From an uncultured Nitrososphaerota archaeon (lineage in GTDB: Archaea > Asgardarchaeota > Njordarchaeia > Njordarchaeales > Panguiarchaeaceae): a stretch of DNA of 22,524 nucleotides. This document shows positions 896 through 21,470 of this stretch, one piece after another; the stretch's first letter is position 1; each line of letters begins with the position of its first letter. Location of the stretch: positions 51,146-73,669 of the forward strand of contig CAZWPQ010000008.1 in NCBI GenBank assembly GCA_964636085.1. Reading direction: 5' to 3'. A program made the translations under genes and the position numbers. Below the pieces are notes generated by a model. It had not been told where the DNA came from. It was given only the letters and a program-made list of their open reading frames with translations, and ran no database searches.

Positions 896-1642
896 TCAAA
901 TGAATAGACTTTTAACCTTATATTCGGCATCTCTTATTTTGTTAGATATCCTCATGCCGCGATCTTCAAGAATATCAAGTAGAAGTCTGAGATCATCCTT
1001 GTTAACGTCGGATGCCAGGGACTCGCATAGCTCGTCAAGAGTCCATTTTCTGTCCATGGAGAGCACATCCACTAGTTCATTTAGAGCCTTCTTAAGGCGT
1101 TGATACTCTCCTCTTATCCACTCCGCCTTAGCGTCATCGGTTGATAGGCCATTGCTATGGATAATTATACTCCTCAAGGGATGTAGCGTTGCCTTAGGTT
1201 TTCTAGTTTTCTCTATATCCAACGATATGGTCTCTTTTGATGGTGAAGTGGTCAATTTGGATTCTTCATCAAGGAGAACCACTAATTTTTTCGCAGAGTT
1301 AAGTTCCTTGGATTTTCCTTTTAGAAAAATATGGTCAGCCATCAACAAGTAGTAGAGTAAAATCGCGACTTTTTCAACACCTAAATTACTGATTACTTCC
1401 CCAATTTTTATTGTGGTTGGGCTTATCTTTTTTCTATATAGATAGGATCCCCTGATGAATCCATGCTGATCTATATCAATAATAATCATGTGGGGAGAAG
1501 GTTCCCTATGCTCTATAGGGATCCGTACAATTCCAGTTAACGAGTCCTTGAAGTATTCGGGCTTAATTAATACCTCCTCCACGGTTGAGCATAATGGGCA
1601 TCTTACTTTTAGTAGTAATGGTTTAGAGATGGGTGTGCTCAT
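896..1642 (-). CDS. Hypothetical protein with N-terminal Zn-ribbon-like domain and probable C-terminal winged helix
   Basis: 248-aa ORF. N-terminal CPLC...GIVRIPIEH-x5-HMIIIDIDQHGFIRG. C-terminal WTLDELCESL...DLRLLLDILEDRG resembles a wHTH. Its start overlaps the upstream gene's stop (ATGA at 1639-1642). Confidence 0.75.
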   Translation of the reverse strand: MSTPISKPLLLKVRCPLCSTVEEVLIKPEYFKDSLTGIVRIPIEHREPSPHMIIIDIDQHGFIRGSYLYRKKISPTTIKIGEVISNLGVEKVAILLYYLLMADHIFLKGKSKELNSAKKLVVLLDEESKLTTSPSKETISLDIEKTRKPKATLHPLRSIIIHSNGLSTDDAKAEWIRGEYQRLKKALNELVDVLSMDRKWTLDELCESLASDVNKDDLRLLLDILEDRGMRISNKIRDAEYKVKSLFI

Positions 1643-2481
1643 TTCCTAGTCCACCTCCTAACAATCCAATCTGGGGCTAATATGCCAGTATATAGAAAGA
1701 ATGCAGAGAAAAACTGAAAGAATGATGATAATACTAGAGATATTAGTGCAGGCGCCACAATTTCCTCACCGCTCACCGCGGCCACATCTCTAATTGTTAT
1801 AGGTACCACTGCGAATACCATCAAAAGTATACCGAGAAGCATATATTCATGCCTATGAACAGTAACGGCATCCACATCAGCACCTCGAATCTTTGATCTA
1901 TACAGTAGATAATAGGAGAGTACCGTTAAGAAGCTAATAGCTATTAGCAGAATACTAGTCATTAACCGTATAATACTCTCTATATGTATGGTAGGGTTAG
2001 GGTTCCAAGGAGTTGGTTTTTGTAATCTAGGAATATCAGTACGAAGCCACATGTTCTGTGGTAAGAGGGCTAGTATAGAGCCTAGTATCCCAAAGCCGAT
2101 TGCTGGATAATCTACGCGTACTAGTATGTTGTTTCTCTGCAATCTAGCATAGATATACAAGGAGATATACCATAGAAATGTTGTGAATACCAATACTGCT
2201 GTGCATACAGGTAAGAAATTTATTGTGCATCCAAGCATACTTACGGGTGTCTCTGCAGACCCGTAAACCGCGAAGTATATATTTCCGATATTCCTAACAA
2301 ATAGAGATGCTCCTAGTGCCAAAAATCCCATTGAAAGAATTTTTAATCTAGGTATCTCATGTTTCTTGCTCACGAAGTAGAAAAGATACCCAAAATATAA
2401 CATCTCGATTGAGACAAGGAAGCTAAAGATTACATAAACCAGATAGAAGTGTAGGGGGTAGTTAAATTCTATGTATGACAA
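1639..2481 (-). CDS. Seven-transmembrane integral membrane protein (receptor-like, function unknown)
   Basis: 280 aa with about 7 hydrophobic segments, ending LYTGILAPDW. TTG start preceded by GGGGAG. Confidence 0.8.
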   Translation of the reverse strand: MSYIEFNYPLHFYLVYVIFSFLVSIEMLYFGYLFYFVSKKHEIPRLKILSMGFLALGASLFVRNIGNIYFAVYGSAETPVSMLGCTINFLPVCTAVLVFTTFLWYISLYIYARLQRNNILVRVDYPAIGFGILGSILALLPQNMWLRTDIPRLQKPTPWNPNPTIHIESIIRLMTSILLIAISFLTVLSYYLLYRSKIRGADVDAVTVHRHEYMLLGILLMVFAVVPITIRDVAAVSGEEIVAPALISLVLSSFFQFFSAFFLYTGILAPDWIVRRWTRK

Positions 2482-4950: not shown

Positions 4951-6204
4951 CTAGAGATATTTTCTCGGATCCGTTATTTTCCCTTCAATAGCAGAAGCAG
5001 CTACTGTTGCTGGTGAGGCCAAATATATATATGAGTCTGGTGGCCCCATCCTACCTTTAAAGTTTCTATTAGCCGAAGAGATACACACCTCACCAGGAGC
5101 CAAAACGCCTTGATGTTTGCCTAGGCATGGACCACATCCAGGAGGTATAATCACTGCCCCCGCATCGAGAAATACATCGATCAATCCCTCCTTTATTGCC
5201 TGTTTTAGGACGGTCTTGGATGCTGGACCTACAATCATTCGGACGTCTGGGTGAATCTTTTTTCCCTCAAGGATTTTTGCGGCTATCTCCAAATCCTCTA
5301 AGCGTCCATTCGTACAGGTGCCGAGGAATGCCTGATGGATTTTTGTCCCCTCAACTTCCCTTACAGGTTTTGCATTTCCCGGAGAGTGGGGCGCAGCCAC
5401 CATGGGCTCTATCTCTCCCGCATCGAATTCGTATACTGCGGAATATTGAGCGTCTTTGTCTGCTAGCACAATCTCGTATTTCCCACCAATATGCCTATCT
5501 ATGTACTCCTTAGTCTTCGAATCTGGTGGTATTATGGCGGCTTTTGCCCCCATTTCCATAGCCATATTAGATATGGTTAGTCTGGAACTTATGCTTAAAT
5601 CTTCGATAGCGTTACCATAGAACTCTACCGCTTTATAGTCTGCCGCGTCCACTCCGAGTTTTCCAATTATGTATATTATCAGATCCTTAGAATATACGCC
5701 CTTTGGCCACTTACCCTTAACTATGATTTTTATTGTTTCAGGGACGCGCATCCACAATTTTCCAGTTGCCCAGACCATCGCCATGTCTGTGGCTCCTATC
5801 CCTGTTGAAAATGCTCCGAGCGCTCCATGTGTTGTAGTGTGAGAGTCCGTTCCAACTATTAGTAGTCCAGGTCTATCATATCTCTCAGCGAGAATTTGAT
5901 GGCATATGCCTTCTCCGATGTCATGGAAATACTTGATTCCCTGTTGCCTGACAAATTCTCTAACTCTTTTCTGCGTGGTAGCAGTAGTGACTGTTTCGGC
6001 TGGTATCCTATGGTCAAAAATTATGACGATTTTGTTGGGATCCCAAACTTTTTGTATTCCAAGTTTTTTAAAGTTTTTGAGCACCATGTCTGCATTCTCA
6101 TGGGACATCGCCAAGTCTATATTGGCCATAATAAATTCGCCGGGCTTTACATAATCCTTCCCAGCTTTTTTCGCCAAAATTTTTTCTGCAATCGTCATCC
6201 CCAT
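4951..6204 (-). CDS. leuC: 3-isopropylmalate dehydratase/homoaconitase-family large subunit (LeuC/HacA/DmdA type); substrate uncertain
   Basis: MGMTIAEKILA, DHRIP, GICHQ, GTDSHTTTHGALG, [4Fe-4S] cysteines in GTCTNGR and GCGPCLG, NRNFKGRMG, YLASPATVAASA. Start refined to ATG 6204, which follows GGGGTGAT. Confidence 0.95.
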   Translation of the reverse strand: MGMTIAEKILAKKAGKDYVKPGEFIMANIDLAMSHENADMVLKNFKKLGIQKVWDPNKIVIIFDHRIPAETVTTATTQKRVREFVRQQGIKYFHDIGEGICHQILAERYDRPGLLIVGTDSHTTTHGALGAFSTGIGATDMAMVWATGKLWMRVPETIKIIVKGKWPKGVYSKDLIIYIIGKLGVDAADYKAVEFYGNAIEDLSISSRLTISNMAMEMGAKAAIIPPDSKTKEYIDRHIGGKYEIVLADKDAQYSAVYEFDAGEIEPMVAAPHSPGNAKPVREVEGTKIHQAFLGTCTNGRLEDLEIAAKILEGKKIHPDVRMIVGPASKTVLKQAIKEGLIDVFLDAGAVIIPPGCGPCLGKHQGVLAPGEVCISSANRNFKGRMGPPDSYIYLASPATVAASAIEGKITDPRKYL

Positions 6205-6224
6205 GTGTATCACCCCCATAATTC

Positions 6225-6746
6225 TTACTCCCTAATCTTAATCTCACCCTTTTCTATCTTGTTTTTAAGGTACGGTATTAGCCCGCCAGTCTTTAATATT
6301 TCCATCATGAAATCTGGGAGCGGCTGGGCAGTTATCTTTTGTCCTGTCCTAAGATTCTTTATTTCTCCAGTGCTAAGGTTTATTTCTATTTCGTCGCCAT
6401 CCTCCACAATCTTTGTGACTCCTGGGGCTATTAGGATTGGTAAACCAAGGTTAATCGCGTTTCTAAAGTATATCCTAGCTACACTCTCCGCAACTATAGC
6501 GGCTATGCCAAAGTACTTTAGACAAGCAGCTGCTTGCTCTCTTGATGATCCACAGCCCCAATTTCTTCCAGCAACTATAATGTCCCCCGGTTTTGCTTTT
6601 TCTAGGAACTCAGGATACGTCGTCTTGAAGCAGTATTTCGCTGTTTCAACGGGATCCGTAATATGCATAAATTGTCCTGGAAAGATGAAATCTGTATCTA
6701 TGTTGTCCCCAAACTTCCAGACTCTACCCCTAATTATCTTCTCCAT
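6225..6746 (-). CDS. leuD: 3-isopropylmalate dehydratase/homoaconitase-family small subunit (LeuD/HacB/DmdB type)
   Basis: GRVWKFGDNIDTD, GRNWGCGSSREQA, ARIYFRNAINLGLP. Likely start is ATG 6746 after AGGTGA; 6752 and 6755 are alternatives. Confidence 0.95.
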   Translation of the reverse strand: MEKIIRGRVWKFGDNIDTDFIFPGQFMHITDPVETAKYCFKTTYPEFLEKAKPGDIIVAGRNWGCGSSREQAAACLKYFGIAAIVAESVARIYFRNAINLGLPILIAPGVTKIVEDGDEIEINLSTGEIKNLRTGQKITAQPLPDFMMEILKTGGLIPYLKNKIEKGEIKIRE

Positions 6747-6755
6747 ATTCATCAC

Positions 6756-7679
6756 CTATTGCTCCCCAATACGCTCTAATTCGCCATACATTTTCTTTAG
6801 AATTTCCTCTGGAATGTATTTCTTCTCCATCTCCTTTATTCTCGGAAGCCCTATCATCTCATTGAATTTCCTCCAGTTAATGCACATGTCCTCCCATTCA
6901 CTGGGAGACTTTGAGCGCTTTACTTTTTCTAGAACCTCTATCATAGCCTTTGTTGCAGCATATAGAAGGGTCAATGGAAGTGAAATCATTTTTACTCCTG
7001 CCTTTTCCAGTTCTTCGAACGTGAAATATGGCGTCTTTCCTCCCTCAATCATATTGAATGCTATGGGTACGGGAATTTCGTTAACAAGTCTCTTTACCTC
7101 ATCTAACGATTGAGGAGTCTCAACATATATATAATCTGCACCCGCATCAGCATACATCTTAGCTCGTCTCAAAACCTCATCAAACCCAGCTACAGATCTA
7201 GCATCAGTTCTTGCACCGATAACAAAATCTGGGTCAACCTCATTTCTTGCATCCACAGCGGCCCTTATTTTCCCAACCATTTCCTCGGCAGAGATGATTT
7301 GTTTGCCGAACATATGTCCACATCTTTTAGGCCATACTTGATCCTCAATTTGGATTCCAGCGGCACCAGTTAATATGACCTCTTTAGTGGTTCTATACAC
7401 ATTTATTGCATTGCCATATCCAGTATCGGCATCTACAATTACTGGGACCCTTACGGCATGACATATCTCTGTTGCGCGCTGGATCATTTCTCCAAAACTA
7501 ACTAAACCAACGTCTGGTTCTCCAATCTTAGTTGCCGAAACCCCATAGCCAGTCATCAGCAATAGTTTAAATCCCGCAAGCTCGGCTATTTTTGCAGAGA
7601 GAGCATCATATACACCAGGCCTTATTATGAGGCCCGGCTCCTTGAGCATCTTTCTCAATTCTTTTGATCTTTGAAGCAT
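6756..7679 (-). CDS. prpB: Isocitrate lyase/PEP mutase superfamily lyase (2-methylisocitrate lyase or 2,3-dimethylmalate lyase-like)
   Basis: PGVYDALSA, DADTGYGN, IEDQVWPKRCGH (catalytic KRCGH loop), ARTDA, NMIEGGKTP. Confidence 0.9.
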   Translation of the reverse strand: MLQRSKELRKMLKEPGLIIRPGVYDALSAKIAELAGFKLLLMTGYGVSATKIGEPDVGLVSFGEMIQRATEICHAVRVPVIVDADTGYGNAINVYRTTKEVILTGAAGIQIEDQVWPKRCGHMFGKQIISAEEMVGKIRAAVDARNEVDPDFVIGARTDARSVAGFDEVLRRAKMYADAGADYIYVETPQSLDEVKRLVNEIPVPIAFNMIEGGKTPYFTFEELEKAGVKMISLPLTLLYAATKAMIEVLEKVKRSKSPSEWEDMCINWRKFNEMIGLPRIKEMEKKYIPEEILKKMYGELERIGEQ

Positions 7680-9081: not shown

Positions 9082-9699
9082 ATGAAGAAGGCAATACCAA
9101 TAATCATGTTGGGAATCTTGATGTTGCTTTCTATCCAAACTTTGCTTGCCCAGGATACTATTCCCTTCACTGAGGGCCAAGAGATAACATACTACGTAAA
9201 CAAAGTAAAGAATACAGAGGACATGGTGTTTAGCTTAGGATCGATCAGTAAGGGTGATAAGATAGTTGTAAAAATAACAAGTATAGTTGGTACTTATGTC
9301 TATGCCAATATCTCCGTAAATGGTGAACTCAGACAATTTGGCTATCTCCTAGAGTGGGGAGAGCACTACCTTCTCAAGGATGAATCCTCAATAGCACTAT
9401 GGAAGTCAATGATGGAGGCCGAGGGCTATGAAGTATCTGGCTCAGGCGGCGATTGGACCGCTGAGTTTAAAGTTGAAAGCGAGGCCCTAACAATCAAATC
9501 AATATACAAGTTCAAGAATTACATACTTGACTACTACTACTTCTATACGGAAGCAATGGGCTACTCTGCGGAGTATGAGATATCTACCTCTAAGCCTGGG
9601 CCCTCAATGCTATGGATAGGAGTAGGAATAGTAGTAGCTGTAGTTGTGATATTGGCTGTTGTCATGGTATTAAAGAAGAGATCTAGCACAGGAGCATAG
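9082..9699 (+). CDS. Secreted/surface protein with signal peptide and C-terminal membrane anchor
   Basis: Signal-peptide-like MKKAIPIIMLGILMLLSIQTLLA, a beta-strand-rich Y/E/K body, and C-terminal PGP-SMLWIGVGIVVAVVVILAVVMVL-KKR. GAGG lies upstream. Confidence 0.85.
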   Translation: MKKAIPIIMLGILMLLSIQTLLAQDTIPFTEGQEITYYVNKVKNTEDMVFSLGSISKGDKIVVKITSIVGTYVYANISVNGELRQFGYLLEWGEHYLLKDESSIALWKSMMEAEGYEVSGSGGDWTAEFKVESEALTIKSIYKFKNYILDYYYFYTEAMGYSAEYEISTSKPGPSMLWIGVGIVVAVVVILAVVMVLKKRSSTGA

Positions 9700-10134: not shown

Positions 10135-11826
10135 CTAGACCCTTACCTGGATTATTTTATTATTTTCGTTCTTTAGCTGATGCATGTAGAACAATAGTAG
10201 TTCTTTTATTCCGCTTCTAAATACTTTGTTTAGAGTGTGCTCGAGGTTATCCATCGCGACTTTATAGAGCCTTATTTTTTGTCCAAATTTTAGTTTTAGC
10301 CGGGACAGATACTCAATACTACTTTTAACTAGGATACTACGACTAAGCTTCTTATTTGTTAGGCCCATGATTATTATGGGGTATTTATGGCCAGAGTTTT
10401 TCCAATAATCCTTGATCGTTCCTTCGATGAGAACTACATCCTCTAAGCGCGAAAGATCCACTATTATTATTGCGTATCTCGCACCCAAATAATATAGCTT
10501 TCTAAGCCTTTCAAACATGGGGGACATGTCTAGACTCCATATAACATACTGGACAAAGACGGTGCCGAATGGAGCTAGGTTAAAAATATCATAGAACGAG
10601 TAAAAATTCACTCCCACGCCTGATTCCTGTCTCTGTTCACATCTTAGCGACTTGCCCAAGATCCTGTCCTTTATGGGTGAACCCAAGACAATAACTTTTA
10701 TCCTAAATGTATTTAGTTCTCCAAAAATTAGTTCTATTGCTCTCTTGTATACATCTGGATCTATACCAATAAATATTTTCTCCAATAATCTTCCAATAAA
10801 TTCATCGGCCGTACCCCTGAAGATTATACCTAAGGTCTTTATCGCATATCTACGGACATGGTGATTTTTATCGCCAGTAAGCTTCAACAATAGACGTAAT
10901 GTAGAATGGTTTCCACTACTATAGAATACCAAGGATAGTGTCCTGAGAGCCCCTAGCTTGACGAGGTCAGTGTCCTTGATATACCTCCATAATAAATCTA
11001 TTATCCTCGTATCATTTGTCCTCATGTAAATCCATCCAAGTGTCTCTATGGCAAGACATCGTAGATATCGATCTGGAGAGCAGGCTAGAATACTGACATA
11101 TTTTCTTATGGGCATATGCTTTTCATATATTTTGCTCATTCCTCTGAGTGCTATAGAAATTGTTCTGAGCGCGATCTCATGGGTTTTTCTATTTCCAATA
11201 GAAATTATTTCTTTGAGAATCCTTAGAATCCCTGTGGGTCTACCTCTTAATATTTTTCCTAGTGATAAAGAAATTATCGCCCTAGACATTGGATCATCAT
11301 ATCGTGCATATAATAGCAGAAGATTTGCTATATCTATATTTCCCGTATTCTCATATAACAATCCGACGGCTAAAATTGCTGTTTTGAGCAGATCGGGTTC
11401 ACATTGGCTGAGGATTTTAACGATATCATTATAGTTAGCTACATCGTTTCCCTTCCTTCTAAACATTATCCCCAGCAATGCCAATACTTCCTTACGAATC
11501 GATGGGAAGTTCTTATATACATCAACAAGGATTTCAAAGGCATCTGAAGAAGGATTATAGCTGAATACTTTGGCAAGTATATGCAGGGCATCTATAGAAA
11601 GTCTCTCGTTGTATAGAAGAGGCCTAATATATTCATATACTACCTTGGGATACATACTTAGTAATCTATATGCGGCCTCTGGAACCGATACATTTAGACC
11701 AGCACAAAGTTTGGTTGTGACATATCTACCATCACCGATATTTCTGAGCAATGTAGCTATACTATCCTTCATGTATTTCAACGAAGGGGATATACGAGTC
11801 TCGGAGGGTTTTGTATCTCTTGGCAT
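10135..11826 (-). CDS. PC/HEAT-like helical-repeat protein fused to a C-terminal degenerate Rab-like small GTPase domain
   Basis: About 8 repeats of roughly 35 aa, e.g. AILAVGLLYENTGNIDIANLL, AIETLGWIYMRTNDTRIIDLL, ALRTLSLVFYSSGNHSTLRLL, AIKTLGIIFRGTADEFIGRLL. From about residue 374: IKVIVLG...GVGVNF...VIW...FERLRKLYYLGARYAIIIVDLS...PIIIMG, the Rab/Ras-like secondary-structure motif order. Confidence 0.85.
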   Translation of the reverse strand: MPRDTKPSETRISPSLKYMKDSIATLLRNIGDGRYVTTKLCAGLNVSVPEAAYRLLSMYPKVVYEYIRPLLYNERLSIDALHILAKVFSYNPSSDAFEILVDVYKNFPSIRKEVLALLGIMFRRKGNDVANYNDIVKILSQCEPDLLKTAILAVGLLYENTGNIDIANLLLLYARYDDPMSRAIISLSLGKILRGRPTGILRILKEIISIGNRKTHEIALRTISIALRGMSKIYEKHMPIRKYVSILACSPDRYLRCLAIETLGWIYMRTNDTRIIDLLWRYIKDTDLVKLGALRTLSLVFYSSGNHSTLRLLLKLTGDKNHHVRRYAIKTLGIIFRGTADEFIGRLLEKIFIGIDPDVYKRAIELIFGELNTFRIKVIVLGSPIKDRILGKSLRCEQRQESGVGVNFYSFYDIFNLAPFGTVFVQYVIWSLDMSPMFERLRKLYYLGARYAIIIVDLSRLEDVVLIEGTIKDYWKNSGHKYPIIIMGLTNKKLSRSILVKSSIEYLSRLKLKFGQKIRLYKVAMDNLEHTLNKVFRSGIKELLLFYMHQLKNENNKIIQVRV

Positions 11827-11839
11827 TCAGAAAAACCTA

Positions 11840-13306
11840 TCAACCATTTATGTGTGGAGAATGCCCCCTCTTAATTCTTCTTAGATTATCATTTAGGATA
11901 GCATCAGCGATTCGATTAGTGGCACTAATTATCTGCTGGATGTTGTGTGGACTTACGACTATAAAGTCTGTATGATGATCATATATCCTTGCGAGACATA
12001 AGACGAGAAACTTCGCTATATACCCAAGCAGATATGAAAGTTGTGTAGGATACGATTCCAAATAACCGATCAACACTGTTGGTATGGGCAAATAGTAGTG
12101 CGTTACAAAATCGATATATTCTATCGCTCTTGATAAGCTTTTGTACGAGTTCATATCGAATGCTACCCACAGTATTCCTGATCCGCATAGAAATGTCACT
12201 AGAATACTTGGTCTTATTCTAAGGTCGATATTCCATATGCCATAATCAGCCTTCATCACGCCGATATACTCGTCTTTAAGATGACACTTCCACAAGAGAA
12301 AGTCCATAGAACATAATGTTTTGCGGGCCATATTAGCATTCTTAGGACCCCCTCGCTCCTCCAGATCTGCAATTATCTTCTGCTTAACCAGATAGTCGCC
12401 AAGAAAGGCAATCTTAAGGAAAATACGGCCCCCCGGATTTTCTATCATCTGAACAGCGTCAGCCTCACCTAGGGACATCATTTGGTTCATTTTAAATTTC
12501 AGTTTCGTAAGGCTTATAAGTGAGAATAATCCGGATACACCATCAACACCACGATCTAAGAATTCCTTAAATAGTCCTAGTAGACTCCTACAACATGTAG
12601 TTGCATACTCAATCCATGACAACAACAGGCCACTCTTAGCTACTATGTCGAGTAGTTTTGGGCATTTAGACAGCAATAATTCTTCACTGGCACCCTCCAT
12701 ATTCCACATTTTGCCTACAAATGTTAGGAACTCATCTTTTGTTCTACAAATTAACGACAAAGCAACAATACACAGTAACTTTATTAGAGGAGTATTCTCA
12801 TAGAGACCTAGAATTAATCTAATAGTATTCATATTTCCCAATCTCTTAAAGATTTTTGCAATGCTCATAATCGCTACCGATTTTATAACAATATTATCCT
12901 CCTTATTTACAACCCTCCGAATGAAATAAGCACCGATATCTGTGTTTCCAATATCAGAAAATATTTCTACAAGCATATAGAGAATATGATGCCTATGCCG
13001 AGGGCAATCTAGGTATAGGCGCTCAATCACACGGATTATGTCACTATTTTTGGATCTATAGGTCATATAGAATATAGCCAACACATCATTAGCGAGCCTA
13101 GAATCCAGCAATGGTGAGACATAAAAGACAAACCTATCAATATCTCTAGACAAAACATCATAGTTTGCTTTGGGCAAAATAAGAGTCCTGCCCCCCAAAT
13201 TTGCTTCTACATAATCATTGGATCCTATACTACAGAAGAAATCGGATAATGCGTTTATCCACTCCCTATCGAATATCATCAGCTCATCTCGCCTACTGCA
13301 AGACAA
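11840..13306 (-). CDS. Paralogue of 10135..11826: PC/HEAT-like repeats plus degenerate Rab-like domain
   Basis: Aligns by eye with its neighbour (IGSNDYVEANL/IGDGRYVTTKL, YVSPLL-DSRL/YIRPLLYNERL, IFSDIGN/MFRRKGN). C-terminal LKIAFLGD...DF...IWNI...FLCGSGILWVAFDMNSYKSL...IPTVLIG. Start is TTG 13306 or ATG 13279. Confidence 0.8.
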   Translation of the reverse strand: MSCSRRDELMIFDREWINALSDFFCSIGSNDYVEANLGGRTLILPKANYDVLSRDIDRFVFYVSPLLDSRLANDVLAIFYMTYRSKNSDIIRVIERLYLDCPRHRHHILYMLVEIFSDIGNTDIGAYFIRRVVNKEDNIVIKSVAIMSIAKIFKRLGNMNTIRLILGLYENTPLIKLLCIVALSLICRTKDEFLTFVGKMWNMEGASEELLLSKCPKLLDIVAKSGLLLSWIEYATTCCRSLLGLFKEFLDRGVDGVSGLFSLISLTKLKFKMNQMMSLGEADAVQMIENPGGRIFLKIAFLGDYLVKQKIIADLEERGGPKNANMARKTLCSMDFLLWKCHLKDEYIGVMKADYGIWNIDLRIRPSILVTFLCGSGILWVAFDMNSYKSLSRAIEYIDFVTHYYLPIPTVLIGYLESYPTQLSYLLGYIAKFLVLCLARIYDHHTDFIVVSPHNIQQIISATNRIADAILNDNLRRIKRGHSPHING

Positions 13307-13441
13307 TTAATCTGCAGAGGCGATATTTGCCTCCCGCTGGATATCTATTGTGACTTCATCCAATTCGCTTTCGTCTTTGAGATTAAAGATCTTCCTCTTT
13401 TGGATAGCTATCTGAGTTTGTTCATTCTTTTCTGCCGACAT
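13307..13441 (-). CDS. Small 44-aa hypothetical protein with an acidic C-terminal half
   Basis: Below the ORF-track cutoff. MSAEKNEQTQIAIQKRKIFNLKDESELDEVTIDIQREANIASAD*. AGGTG Shine-Dalgarno lies just upstream of ATG 13441, with a TTTAAATA box about 45 nt upstream. The stop directly abuts the next ORF. Confidence 0.65.
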   Translation of the reverse strand: MSAEKNEQTQIAIQKRKIFNLKDESELDEVTIDIQREANIASAD

Positions 13442-13484
13442 TCATTACACCTAGACCCTTAATAATTAGAATACTTTCGATCCA

Positions 13485-13492
13485 TATTTAAA
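13485..13492 (-). promoter_or_regulatory. Putative archaeal TATA box (TTTAAATA) for the peptide/PC-repeat operon
   Basis: Consensus-like TATA about 45 nt upstream of ATG 13441, which would give a short leader containing the SD. Confidence 0.5.
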
Positions 13493-13861: not shown

Positions 13862-14410
13862 CTACCACCACCATCCACGCATTGTAGATACCCCATATTC
13901 CATGGAGGATCTAGCAGTCCTGATAAGCGACAGCGGGAACATTACTAGGAACGATATGAAACCAAGGGGGATAGGCCTATAGCCCCAATCGTGTGCATCG
14001 TATATCGCTAGGCCCCCATAGATTAGTCCTAGTATAAACGCTACTACACCAATAGATACAACCAAATTTCTGATGGCCACCGTTAGAGACTGGCGGAATT
14101 TGGCTATAATAATACAGTATACTATCGTAAAGATAAATGAAATCAGCCCCAGAACATATATATCCCTAGCCTTCCACATCCAAGTCCAATCTGACCCCGA
14201 ATACCTTAGTCCGTAGAAATTAGAGGTAAACCTAATATAGACAGGGCCAAACCCAAAGATAATTAGTATCGCATGAAATGATTCTATATATCCCTCATAA
14301 TAATGATATTCGTAACTCGCGTATATCCATGGTATAAAAAAGCTTATCAATACAAGCAATGCGTATATTAAATTACGATCCTTTGTCGCGACTGAGCCCA
14401 TATAGTGCAT
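13862..14410 (-). CDS. Four-TM membrane protein, paralogue of 20994..21470
   Basis: Four hydrophobic helices. Motifs LISFFIPWIYA, IIFGFG, WTWMW, LGLIYG and PIPLGF are shared with 20994..21470. Start refined to ATG 14410 after GGTGG; the ORF track gives 14452. Confidence 0.8.
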   Translation of the reverse strand: MHYMGSVATKDRNLIYALLVLISFFIPWIYASYEYHYYEGYIESFHAILIIFGFGPVYIRFTSNFYGLRYSGSDWTWMWKARDIYVLGLISFIFTIVYCIIIAKFRQSLTVAIRNLVVSIGVVAFILGLIYGGLAIYDAHDWGYRPIPLGFISFLVMFPLSLIRTARSSMEYGVSTMRGWWW

Positions 14411-14533
14411 AGGGCCCACCAGATGTAGAGTAGCTAACCAAGTTCTAGCCAAAAAATTGGTTCAAATTAATTATATATTTAAAAAATCTTTTCTAATATG
14501 GATATTAGGTAACTTGGATATTAGCTAAGTTCG

Positions 14534-20993: not shown

Positions 20994-21470
20994 ATGTCGT
21001 TCCTAGAAGAGGAAAAAATGAAGATAATACTCCCATTGATAATGTTGATCAGCTTCTTCATACCATGGGTATACGCGAACTACGATGGCGCTAGCATCAT
21101 GATCTTTGGATTTGGAAGGGGACGTGTATCGATCCTTGGTTTCTCAGTATGGGGATGGATGTGGGATGGAGGAAGCAGCATCTACTATCTAGGGCTAATA
21201 GCACTTATCTTAACAATAATATACTTCCTCTTTGAACTACGTGACTACATACCTGCACTACAGGTCCCCAATGCCGAAATGATCAGCTTGGGCACAGGTG
21301 GTCTAGCATTCCTATTTGGTCTCATATATGGAATAAAAGCCATAAGCGACATTGAGGGGGCAACACCAATACCAATAGGCTTCATTATATTCCTCATTGT
21401 GGCAATCCTATCCTTGCTTCCCAAGATTAAGACCCTAACTGGCGCTGGTGCTGCTACCACTACCGTTTAG
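20994..21470 (+). CDS. Four-TM membrane protein, paralogue of 13862..14410
   Basis: AGGTGAG SD. Motifs LISFFIPWVYA, MIFGFG, WGWMW, FGLIYG, PIPIGF. Confidence 0.85.
   Translation: MSFLEEEKMKIILPLIMLISFFIPWVYANYDGASIMIFGFGRGRVSILGFSVWGWMWDGGSSIYYLGLIALILTIIYFLFELRDYIPALQVPNAEMISLGTGGLAFLFGLIYGIKAISDIEGATPIPIGFIIFLIVAILSLLPKIKTLTGAGAATTTV

Follow-up and report, generated by a model that had tools for sequence, protein, structure and literature searches.

A candidate module of PC-type solenoids fused to predicted pseudo-GTPase domains, with a conserved microprotein, in a genus of Njordarchaeia

The stretch of DNA analyzed here (22,524 nucleotides of contig CAZWPQ010000008.1, assembly GCA_964636085.1; "the window") carries a compact minus-strand unit of three genes, which encode a microprotein of 44 residues and two larger proteins, called A and B below. 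In both larger proteins a short N-terminal module and a helical-repeat solenoid are followed by a Rab-like domain that appears to have lost its nucleotide-binding motifs. The host genome (G000; 2.41 Mb, 83% complete) belongs to a genus of Njordarchaeia, a group placed among Asgard archaea by Huang et al. (10.1101/2025.02.13.637844), and the samples come from hydrothermal vent or sediment. We conclude that the unit is part of a real, apparently undescribed module, made up of a class of putative pseudo-GTPase scaffolds and a new microprotein family.

An earlier note on this DNA, made from the letters alone, had drawn a link to Asgard archaea, which the host bears out, and had described open reading frames (ORFs) of 44, 488 and 563 codons with a 13-nt gap between the last two, a TATA box, a Shine-Dalgarno element and about 400 bp of non-coding DNA on each side. 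These features and their coordinates were confirmed (Table 1). The upstream flank measures 420 nt, to the end at 13862 of the next gene (13862-14452, minus strand), and the downstream flank 435 nt, to the end at 9699 of a convergent gene (9082-9699, plus strand). Of the two flanking ORFs, one resembles a membrane-anchored secreted protein and the other a multi-pass membrane protein; the orthologous locus shares neither.

Table 1. Features of the three-gene unit, in window coordinates
Feature	Position	Strand	Basis
TATA box TTTAAATA, with an A-rich stretch upstream that resembles a B recognition element (BRE)	13485-13492	-	Sequence; predicted promoter
Shine-Dalgarno-like AGGTG, 5' of the peptide ATG	13448-13452	-	Sequence
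Gene for the 44-aa microprotein	13307-13441	-	ORF, orthologues, conservation
Gene A, probably 479 aa	11840-13279	-	Database gene call and orthologue P0029, identical gene order
A, N-module (residues 1-60): helix, beta-hairpin, helix, common to B	13100-13279	-	AlphaFold2 secondary structure, predicted local distance difference test (pLDDT) 78-92
A, residues 61-191: about four PC/HEAT-like two-helix repeats	12707-13099	-	AlphaFold2; PSMD2 structural match
A, residues 284-470: strongly degenerate Rab-like G domain	11870-12430	-	Rab3C match, Atlas model
Gene B, 563 aa	10135-11826	-	ORF; orthologues in G002, G003 and metagenomes
B, N-module (residues 14-71): helix, hairpin, helix	11614-11787	-	AlphaFold2
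B, solenoid (residues 72-370): nine two-helix repeats, nearest to Rpn2/Rpn1 PC repeats	10717-11613	-	AlphaFold2, phmmer, structure search
B, Rab-like putative pseudo-GTPase domain (residues 371-553)	10168-10716	-	Alignment to Rab25, Rab11 and Thor-Rab; motifs

The promoter and translation signals recur at related loci. TTTA-A-A columns 5' of the peptide gene are invariant and equally spaced in 7/7 aligned loci, and a GGTG-type element occupies the Shine-Dalgarno site in most orthologous loci. A sigma-70 promoter scan, with a model unsuited to archaea, stayed at chance level. The 488-codon frame described for A exists (11840-13306), but it reaches beyond the probable start of the protein. Both the database gene call and the start of the orthologue point to ATG 13279 as the most likely first codon of A, which puts 27 nt between it and the peptide gene. 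The search of other genomes for this architecture found the order conserved in a second species (loci L035 and L075), with genes of 47, 475 and 566 aa.

In G000 the peptide ORF abuts the open frame of A in phase, with a single TAA between them, so that peptide and A could be taken for one 533-aa protein split by an in-frame stop. We give this reading next to no credence. The TAA is unchanged in the contigs of three runs, one of them at depth 59; in L035, where the flanks differ from those of G000, the small gene and A lie in different frames, 26 nt apart; the start of the A orthologues coincides with the ATG at 13279; and the Ala-Asp end of the peptide is kept whether TAA, TAG or TGA follows it. 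The unchanged stop, the L035 frames and the conserved peptide end rule out a read-through or broken gene, and the first two together make the peptide a gene of its own.

The conservation of the peptide is far stronger than that of its neighbors. Between G000 and L035 it is 69% identical, a score reached by 0/5000 shuffles, as against 38% for B and 24% for A. A profile search gathered 11 database clusters of 43-48 aa each, in all of which (11/11) the C-terminal Ala-Asp is invariant, as are L21, K22, L27, E29 and I32. Mismatches are distributed over the three codon positions as 162/92/309, and two strains differ by 6 synonymous changes and 1 non-synonymous change. On this evidence the 44-aa ORF is, as the earlier note had supposed, a real gene, and it defines a new, strongly conserved microprotein family without an annotation name; Pfam and NCBIfam gave no family-wide match. 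The peptides are net acidic and nearly devoid of aromatic residues, and the free peptide is probably disordered. A complex prediction of B (residues 12-555) with the peptide scored 0.00 in two runs, with controls not folded, and is evidence neither way.

One large family, probably Lokiarchaeia, gave weak peptide matches in 23 of its genomes (E 0.005-0.1). We regard them as chance, because the repeat concerned belongs to the widespread alphaRep type and does not conserve the acidic residues that are invariant in the peptide. All of these matches lie within the linker of one FrhB-like protein, encoded between HEAT-repeat and Rag-like GTPase genes. The run itself is conserved in one large Asgard family (L167-L171, L175) and consists of a HEAT-repeat protein, an FrhB-like Fe-S protein with a C-terminal extension and a Rag-like GTPase with an extra C-terminal domain.

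The AlphaFold2 model of B, built from nine sequences (pLDDT 81.6; predicted template modelling score 0.74), contains both the solenoid and the Ras-like fold that had been proposed. The N-module is the best-conserved part of B (49% vs 37% and 36% for the others), and full-length profile matches to it are confined to this genus. In the solenoid, residues 116-367 match human PSMD1/Rpn2 (phmmer E 4e-7), and the structural Z scores are 21.0 with Rpn2, 19.2 with PSMD2/Rpn1 and 17.4 with importin-beta; residues 15-369, comprising the N-module and the nine repeats, align along Rpn2 391-749 with a root-mean-square deviation (rmsd) of about 11 Å. The assignment to proteasome/cyclosome (PC) repeats thus holds as far as the nearest sequence and structural relatives are concerned, but the Pfam PC_rep score of 19.1 bits falls just below the cut-off of 21; HEAT_2 scores above its own cut-off. 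The net charge of B is +33 (+26 in the orthologue). No transmembrane segment is evident in the proteins of the unit, with a maximal 19-residue hydropathy of 1.4-1.7. The repeats of a strain pair show 8 synonymous and 2 non-synonymous changes. A B orthologue in L036 (951-2647), 98% identical to that of L035, has a one-base frameshift near codon 70 in one assembly.

A role in proteostasis had also been envisaged. In one version of it, A and B would be Rpn1/Rpn2-like adaptors bringing substrates to PAN or the 20S proteasome, and the peptide a glue of the Sem1 type. The top solenoid matches in sequence and in structure are indeed Rpn2 and Rpn1, and 20S genes are present in 5/5 genomes of the genus (distribution counts here and below refer to 400 Asgard genomes, of which 5, 75-83% complete, are of this genus). 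We nevertheless consider such an adaptor very unlikely. RPN2_N, RPN2_C and RPN1 domains were not found in A or B, while a true Rpn2 taken as control (P0068) shows RPN2_N and RPN2_C, and other archaeal PC-type repeat proteins (E down to 3e-22) are nearer to B than Rpn2 is. No proteasome gene stands beside any examined locus. The ubiquitin-conjugating enzyme (E2) was found in 0/5 genus genomes and in 5/5 control Asgard genomes, ubiquitin was not found in the genus by a search without a positive control, and JAB occurs in 1/5. The absent flanking domains and the E2 result weaken the proteostasis proposal; a 19S-like role is unlikely, and by its domain content B is judged not to be an Rpn2 orthologue.

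Regular PC-type repeats above the Pfam cut-off occur in 8/400 Asgard genomes (loci L104:2708-4150, L105:4481-5911, L103:1514-3598, L102:3733-6252 and L106:2679-3743; proteins P0017, P0028 and P0005), and one repeat-only protein matches human Rpn2 with E 3e-19. Several of these proteins end in a hydrophobic segment that we take to resemble the axial helices of Rpn2. They may be better relatives of Rpn1/2 than B is.

Protein A is harder to place. Taken alone it gave no sequence match in Pfam, NCBIfam or the PDB, and Foldseek returned nothing below E 0.001. Its model has a pLDDT of 57.9, with residues 199-350 below 50 and the P-loop region poorly modelled. Residues 51-234 superimpose on PSMD2 (Z 10.6, rmsd 2.8, 121 residues) and the G domain on Rab3C (Z 11.8, rmsd 3.0, 135 residues); the Atlas model matches Ras-family clusters with a template modelling score of 0.74 over 172 residues, and a poorly modelled helical stretch separates repeats and G domain. 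The solenoid and Ras-like fold claimed for A are therefore supported at lower confidence than in B, with about four clear repeats against nine. The N-domain segments quoted in the earlier note were both found, and the paralogy and collinearity that it read from them are borne out by hhalign (99.1%, E 2e-18, 422 columns, A 5-446 vs B 15-518), where plain BLAST aligns the first ~180 residues alone (26%, E 5e-9). By these alignments A is best described as a collinear paralogue of B, more diverged and with fewer predicted repeats. It is seen solely in G000 and the L035 species, its N-module is 39% identical to that of its orthologue, and the two sequences form a long-branched, well-supported clade (100/99). 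The A-B heterodimer suggested earlier is weakened as an obligate arrangement, since most B-type genes of the genus occur without A and follow a different gene, X (see below), while one follows the peptide directly.

The G domain of B aligns with Thor-Rab, Rab25, Rab11 and Rab5 (structural Z 14-16.5 with Rabs), and its top match among the free GTPases of its own genome is on contig C24 (E 7e-20). At least eight stand-alone small GTPases are present in G000; seven combine a full set of G1-G5 motifs with a common lineage-specific hairpin insertion. One complete free Rab-like GTPase gene (C8:50119-50727) lies some 420 nt ahead of the window and about 10.5 kb from B. Another protein among the B matches, P0101 (408 aa), has two tandem Ras-family domains.

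The loss of nucleotide motifs in the fused domains is extensive. At five positions (G1 Gly, G3 Gly, G4 Asn, G4 Asp and G5 Ala) the expected residue is kept in 0/15 fused G domains, and in 19-25 of 27 free GTPase controls, a set that itself includes some degenerate members. The aromatic triad of Rabs, which is the center of the surface used by nearly all partners (PMC5902227), has fared differently: the triad Trp is kept in 14/15 fused domains and the switch-II aromatic in 12/15. B retains all three residues (F408, W430, Y445) together with a YYxGA motif; A retains two of the three in G000, and they are lost in its orthologue. The fused domains form a decay series, from near-intact fusions of a Rab domain to X at one end to A at the other; their tree has long branches, which leave single versus multiple origins unsettled. 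Basic C-terminal tails like those of free Rabs are found in most fusions and are weak in G000 A and B, whose tails contain no prenylation cysteine. With these losses, and with a Ras-superfamily alpha/beta fold, the G domains of A and B are predicted to be pseudo-GTPases without intact G1, G3, G4 and G5, as had been proposed for both.

They could instead be atypical G domains that still bind nucleotide and are constitutively GTP-bound, like Rnd or the p190RhoGAP N-terminal domain. The P-loop lysine is kept in A, B and their orthologues, and B has an NK pair near G4. Compared with Rab25, however, B shows a two-residue deletion in the P-loop, Asp387 in place of the Mg-binding Thr, loss of DxxG and no guanine-specifying Asp in G4, and the substitutions differ between orthologues. 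We regard this alternative as remote.

Beyond the window the unit proves to be one arrangement in a larger, genus-restricted set of genes: X, fusions of X to a dead Rab, and solenoid-dead-Rab proteins. Word-index homologue searches with A and B returned only self-matches, and a complete scan recovered the family; a related-locus search with B found nothing, and the alignment proved too divergent to be of use. Full-length matches to N-module plus repeats occur in 3 genus genomes among the 400. B-type genes are found in G003 and in G002, where two N-terminal pieces and one C-terminal piece represent two or three genes, and wherever the gene upstream of a G002 or G003 B-type gene is visible it encodes X. 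X is a domain of ~340 aa with invariant GLD-NY-FCH, GFD-H-WE, R-QGD and H-EH motifs; a metal site is suggested by its invariant His, Cys, Asp and Glu. Some copies stand by themselves, others precede B-type genes, and in G002, G003 and G004 X is also found joined to a decayed Rab domain. The lone X of G000 is on contig C17 (L040:1480-2502), separate from the A/B contig. Convincing peptide and X matches are found in the same 4/5 genus genomes and, among the 400, in none beyond.

Searches of Pfam, NCBIfam, PHROG and the PDB with X gave no family and no match to a ligase or an enzyme acting on ribosomally synthesized and post-translationally modified peptides (RiPPs); there was no viral or phage match. 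A feature match to SPFH/Band-7 (0.92) amounts to no more than a lead, given its low shared count and the poor model. Longer, more distant X homologues are present in two Thermodiscus genomes (L156:3590-5302, L157:2526-4202), with no peptide or GTPase domain nearby. Further X loci are L021, L022, L023, L024, L025, L079 and L145-L148. In G003, a diverged peptide and X (L146:2683-4005) and a second diverged X (L147:5855-7552) lie among short uncharacterized ORFs, possibly in mobile DNA.

A peptide-centered modification system would account for some of these features: the peptide would be a Pup-like tag or RiPP-like precursor, processed or ligated at its C-terminal Asp by X and read by the solenoid-pseudo-Rab proteins. 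Its invariant Ala-Asp end and leader-like acidic stretch, the resemblance of the conserved X residues to a metal site, the fact that in G003 and G004 an X or X-Rab gene immediately follows the peptide gene, and the failure to find E2 and ubiquitin in the genus all fit. We think it improbable, as the peptide has no di-glycine or GG[E/Q] end, X resembles no known ligase or RiPP enzyme in the libraries named above, the Thermodiscus homologues have no peptide nearby, and the X of G000 is on another contig.

How tightly the peptide belongs to the other genes can be judged from its neighbors. At 6/9 informative loci the peptide gene adjoins a module member. It is followed by A and B in G000 and L035, directly by a B-type gene in L086 and by an X-Rab fusion in G004. 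In G003 C322 both the peptide copy and the X behind it are diverged, and in L152 a pseudo-Rab precedes the peptide gene. The genes might still be loose neighbors, with an independent microprotein, A and B merely placed behind its promoter without forming a complex, and A a drifting duplicate. This view draws on the peptide genes of G002, G003 C298 and G004 C204, which are solitary and followed by T-tracts or a convergent gene, on the far stronger conservation of the peptide than of A or B, and on the long branches of A. It has to explain, however, why four module types flank the peptide at those six loci, including a diverged peptide before a diverged X, and how A has stayed intact in two species at 24% identity, which needs long-term selection. 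We judge it unlikely, though the likeliest of the rivals.

Our preferred reading, to which we assign a probability of roughly one half, is that the fused proteins serve as nucleotide-independent scaffolds or Rab mimics with the peptide as partner. Domain shuffling would have produced such a genus-specific scaffold: a duplicate of a Rab-like GTPase native to the lineage would have been fused behind an archaeal PC-type repeat and would then have lost the residues for GTP binding and hydrolysis, as its sequence indicates. Because B has kept its interswitch/switch-II aromatic face, with which true Rabs contact effectors, GEFs and GAPs, that face is most likely a docking surface that imitates a Rab; the dead Rab of B would be an always-present look-alike that docks onto, or competes for, the partners of active GTPases. 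The solenoid would offer a second binding surface, as PC/HEAT solenoids do elsewhere. Linkage, conservation and charge suggest that the acidic microprotein, whose expression would start from the conserved promoter at the head of the unit, is most likely a ligand or regulatory subunit of A, B or X. Least certain is the part of A, which might be a faster-evolving duplicate at the position held by X in sister species, co-assembling with B via the shared N-module. A role in membrane trafficking is no more than a possibility, as the proteins have neither an evident transmembrane segment nor a prenylation cysteine. Tentatively, and at odds well short of even, the microprotein, the putative metal-binding X and the solenoid-dead-Rab receptors may form an undescribed signaling or tagging system, in which the peptide, as ligand or covalent tag, would couple the scaffolds to active Rab-like GTPases.

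Several observations weigh against the scaffold reading. The P-loop lysine is kept in 6/15 fused domains, including A and B, and these domains may bind nucleotide or phosphate weakly. Retention of the triad Trp need not imply partner binding, because this residue is partly structural, and the A orthologue lacks it. A evolves quickly, with 23-25% identity beyond the N-module, and its strain comparison gives 16 synonymous vs 11 non-synonymous changes. Three peptide genes, those of G002, G003 C298 and G004 C204, have no module neighbor, and in G004 (78% complete) the peptide and X-Rab are present and a B-type gene was not found. As the loci share ancestry, the 6/9 linkage carries no P value.

If the signaling or tagging system exists, it would give an Asgard lineage a regulatory layer of pseudo-GTPases that arose independently of eukaryotes. 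Pseudo-GTPase scaffolds are known from eukaryotes; we found no description of them from archaea, nor of a PC-repeat/Rab fusion anywhere. Since the Rab domains of this one genus range from near-intact to fully degenerate, it can be asked which surface selection maintains when GTP binding is gone, and the dead Rab domains are ready baits for partners of the Asgard Rab-like GTPases. The restriction of the module to one genus makes it read as a parallel invention, not as the ancestor of a eukaryotic complex.

Elsewhere in the window, 4951-7679 (minus strand) holds an ordinary metabolic cluster of aconitase-family large and small subunit genes and a gene of the phosphoenolpyruvate mutase/isocitrate lyase family. 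Four window ORFs have no significant Pfam match: 896-2481 (minus), 9082-9699 (plus), 13862-14452 (minus) and 20994-21470 (plus).

By domain and motif tests A and B fall outside the Rab GTPase, Rpn1/Rpn2 and Roco families. Pup/UBact tags, Sem1/DSS1 and RiPP precursors are short, acidic, low in aromatic residues and conserved, with an invariant C-terminus, like the microprotein. The microprotein differs from them in having no sequence match and no GG motif; Pup and UBact end in GG[E/Q], whereas all 11 microproteins end in Ala-Asp without di-glycine, and no recognized ligase, RiPP-modifying enzyme or RiPP recognition element lies near the peptide within the window (X adjoins it in other genomes). 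Roco proteins (repeat-Roc-COR) likewise place repeats before a Ras-like domain, but A and B have no COR, end ~10 residues after the last G-domain helix and lack active Roc motifs. The Rpn1/PSMD2 and Rpn2/PSMD1 toroids of the 19S base share the repeat pattern with B and are its best solenoid match in structure; they are closed toroids of 11 repeats with axial helices. B has nine repeats and an N-module, followed directly by a G domain. Archaeal PC-type/HEAT proteins of Asgard (kinase-PC, ATPase-PC and repeat-only) belong to the same repeat family and are the probable source of the solenoid, but none examined has a G domain or N-module, and their repeats are regular where those of B are degenerate.

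No protein with this fusion, which the earlier note likewise did not know, turned up in the libraries or literature searched, and among the large Atlas clusters none emerged that combines PC repeats with a Ras domain. A structural survey reported Asgard alpha-solenoids related to eukaryotic scaffolds, without a PC-repeat or GTPase fusion (PMC13734099). In a term search of main texts, without supplements, a solenoid-Rab fusion was not described there or in 10.1101/2024.07.03.601958, 10.1101/2020.10.19.343400 and PMC10307638; a main-text term search of 10.1101/2025.02.13.637844 and PMC10933270 gave the same result. No literature description of the fusion or the peptide was found by a search that lay mostly outside subscription journals. 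G-domain fusions are common in Asgard archaea (26/61 in MK-D1), and those described involve roadblock and longin domains (PMC10933270).

The closest GTPases are the Asgard Rab-like proteins (Thor-Rab, PDB 7ezb), which share the fold and RabF-type motifs and give the best GTPase match; in A and B the nucleotide motifs are lost, and the partner here is an N-terminal PC-type solenoid with a linked microprotein. The working model comes from eukaryotic pseudoGTPases, namely CENP-M and the pG1/pG2 domains of p190RhoGAP, which have a G fold without nucleotide motifs and act as scaffolds or interaction domains (PMC10211241). The likeness is one of fold: here the host is archaeal, the G domain is fused to a solenoid, and the origin would be an independent one, from an archaeal Rab-like gene.

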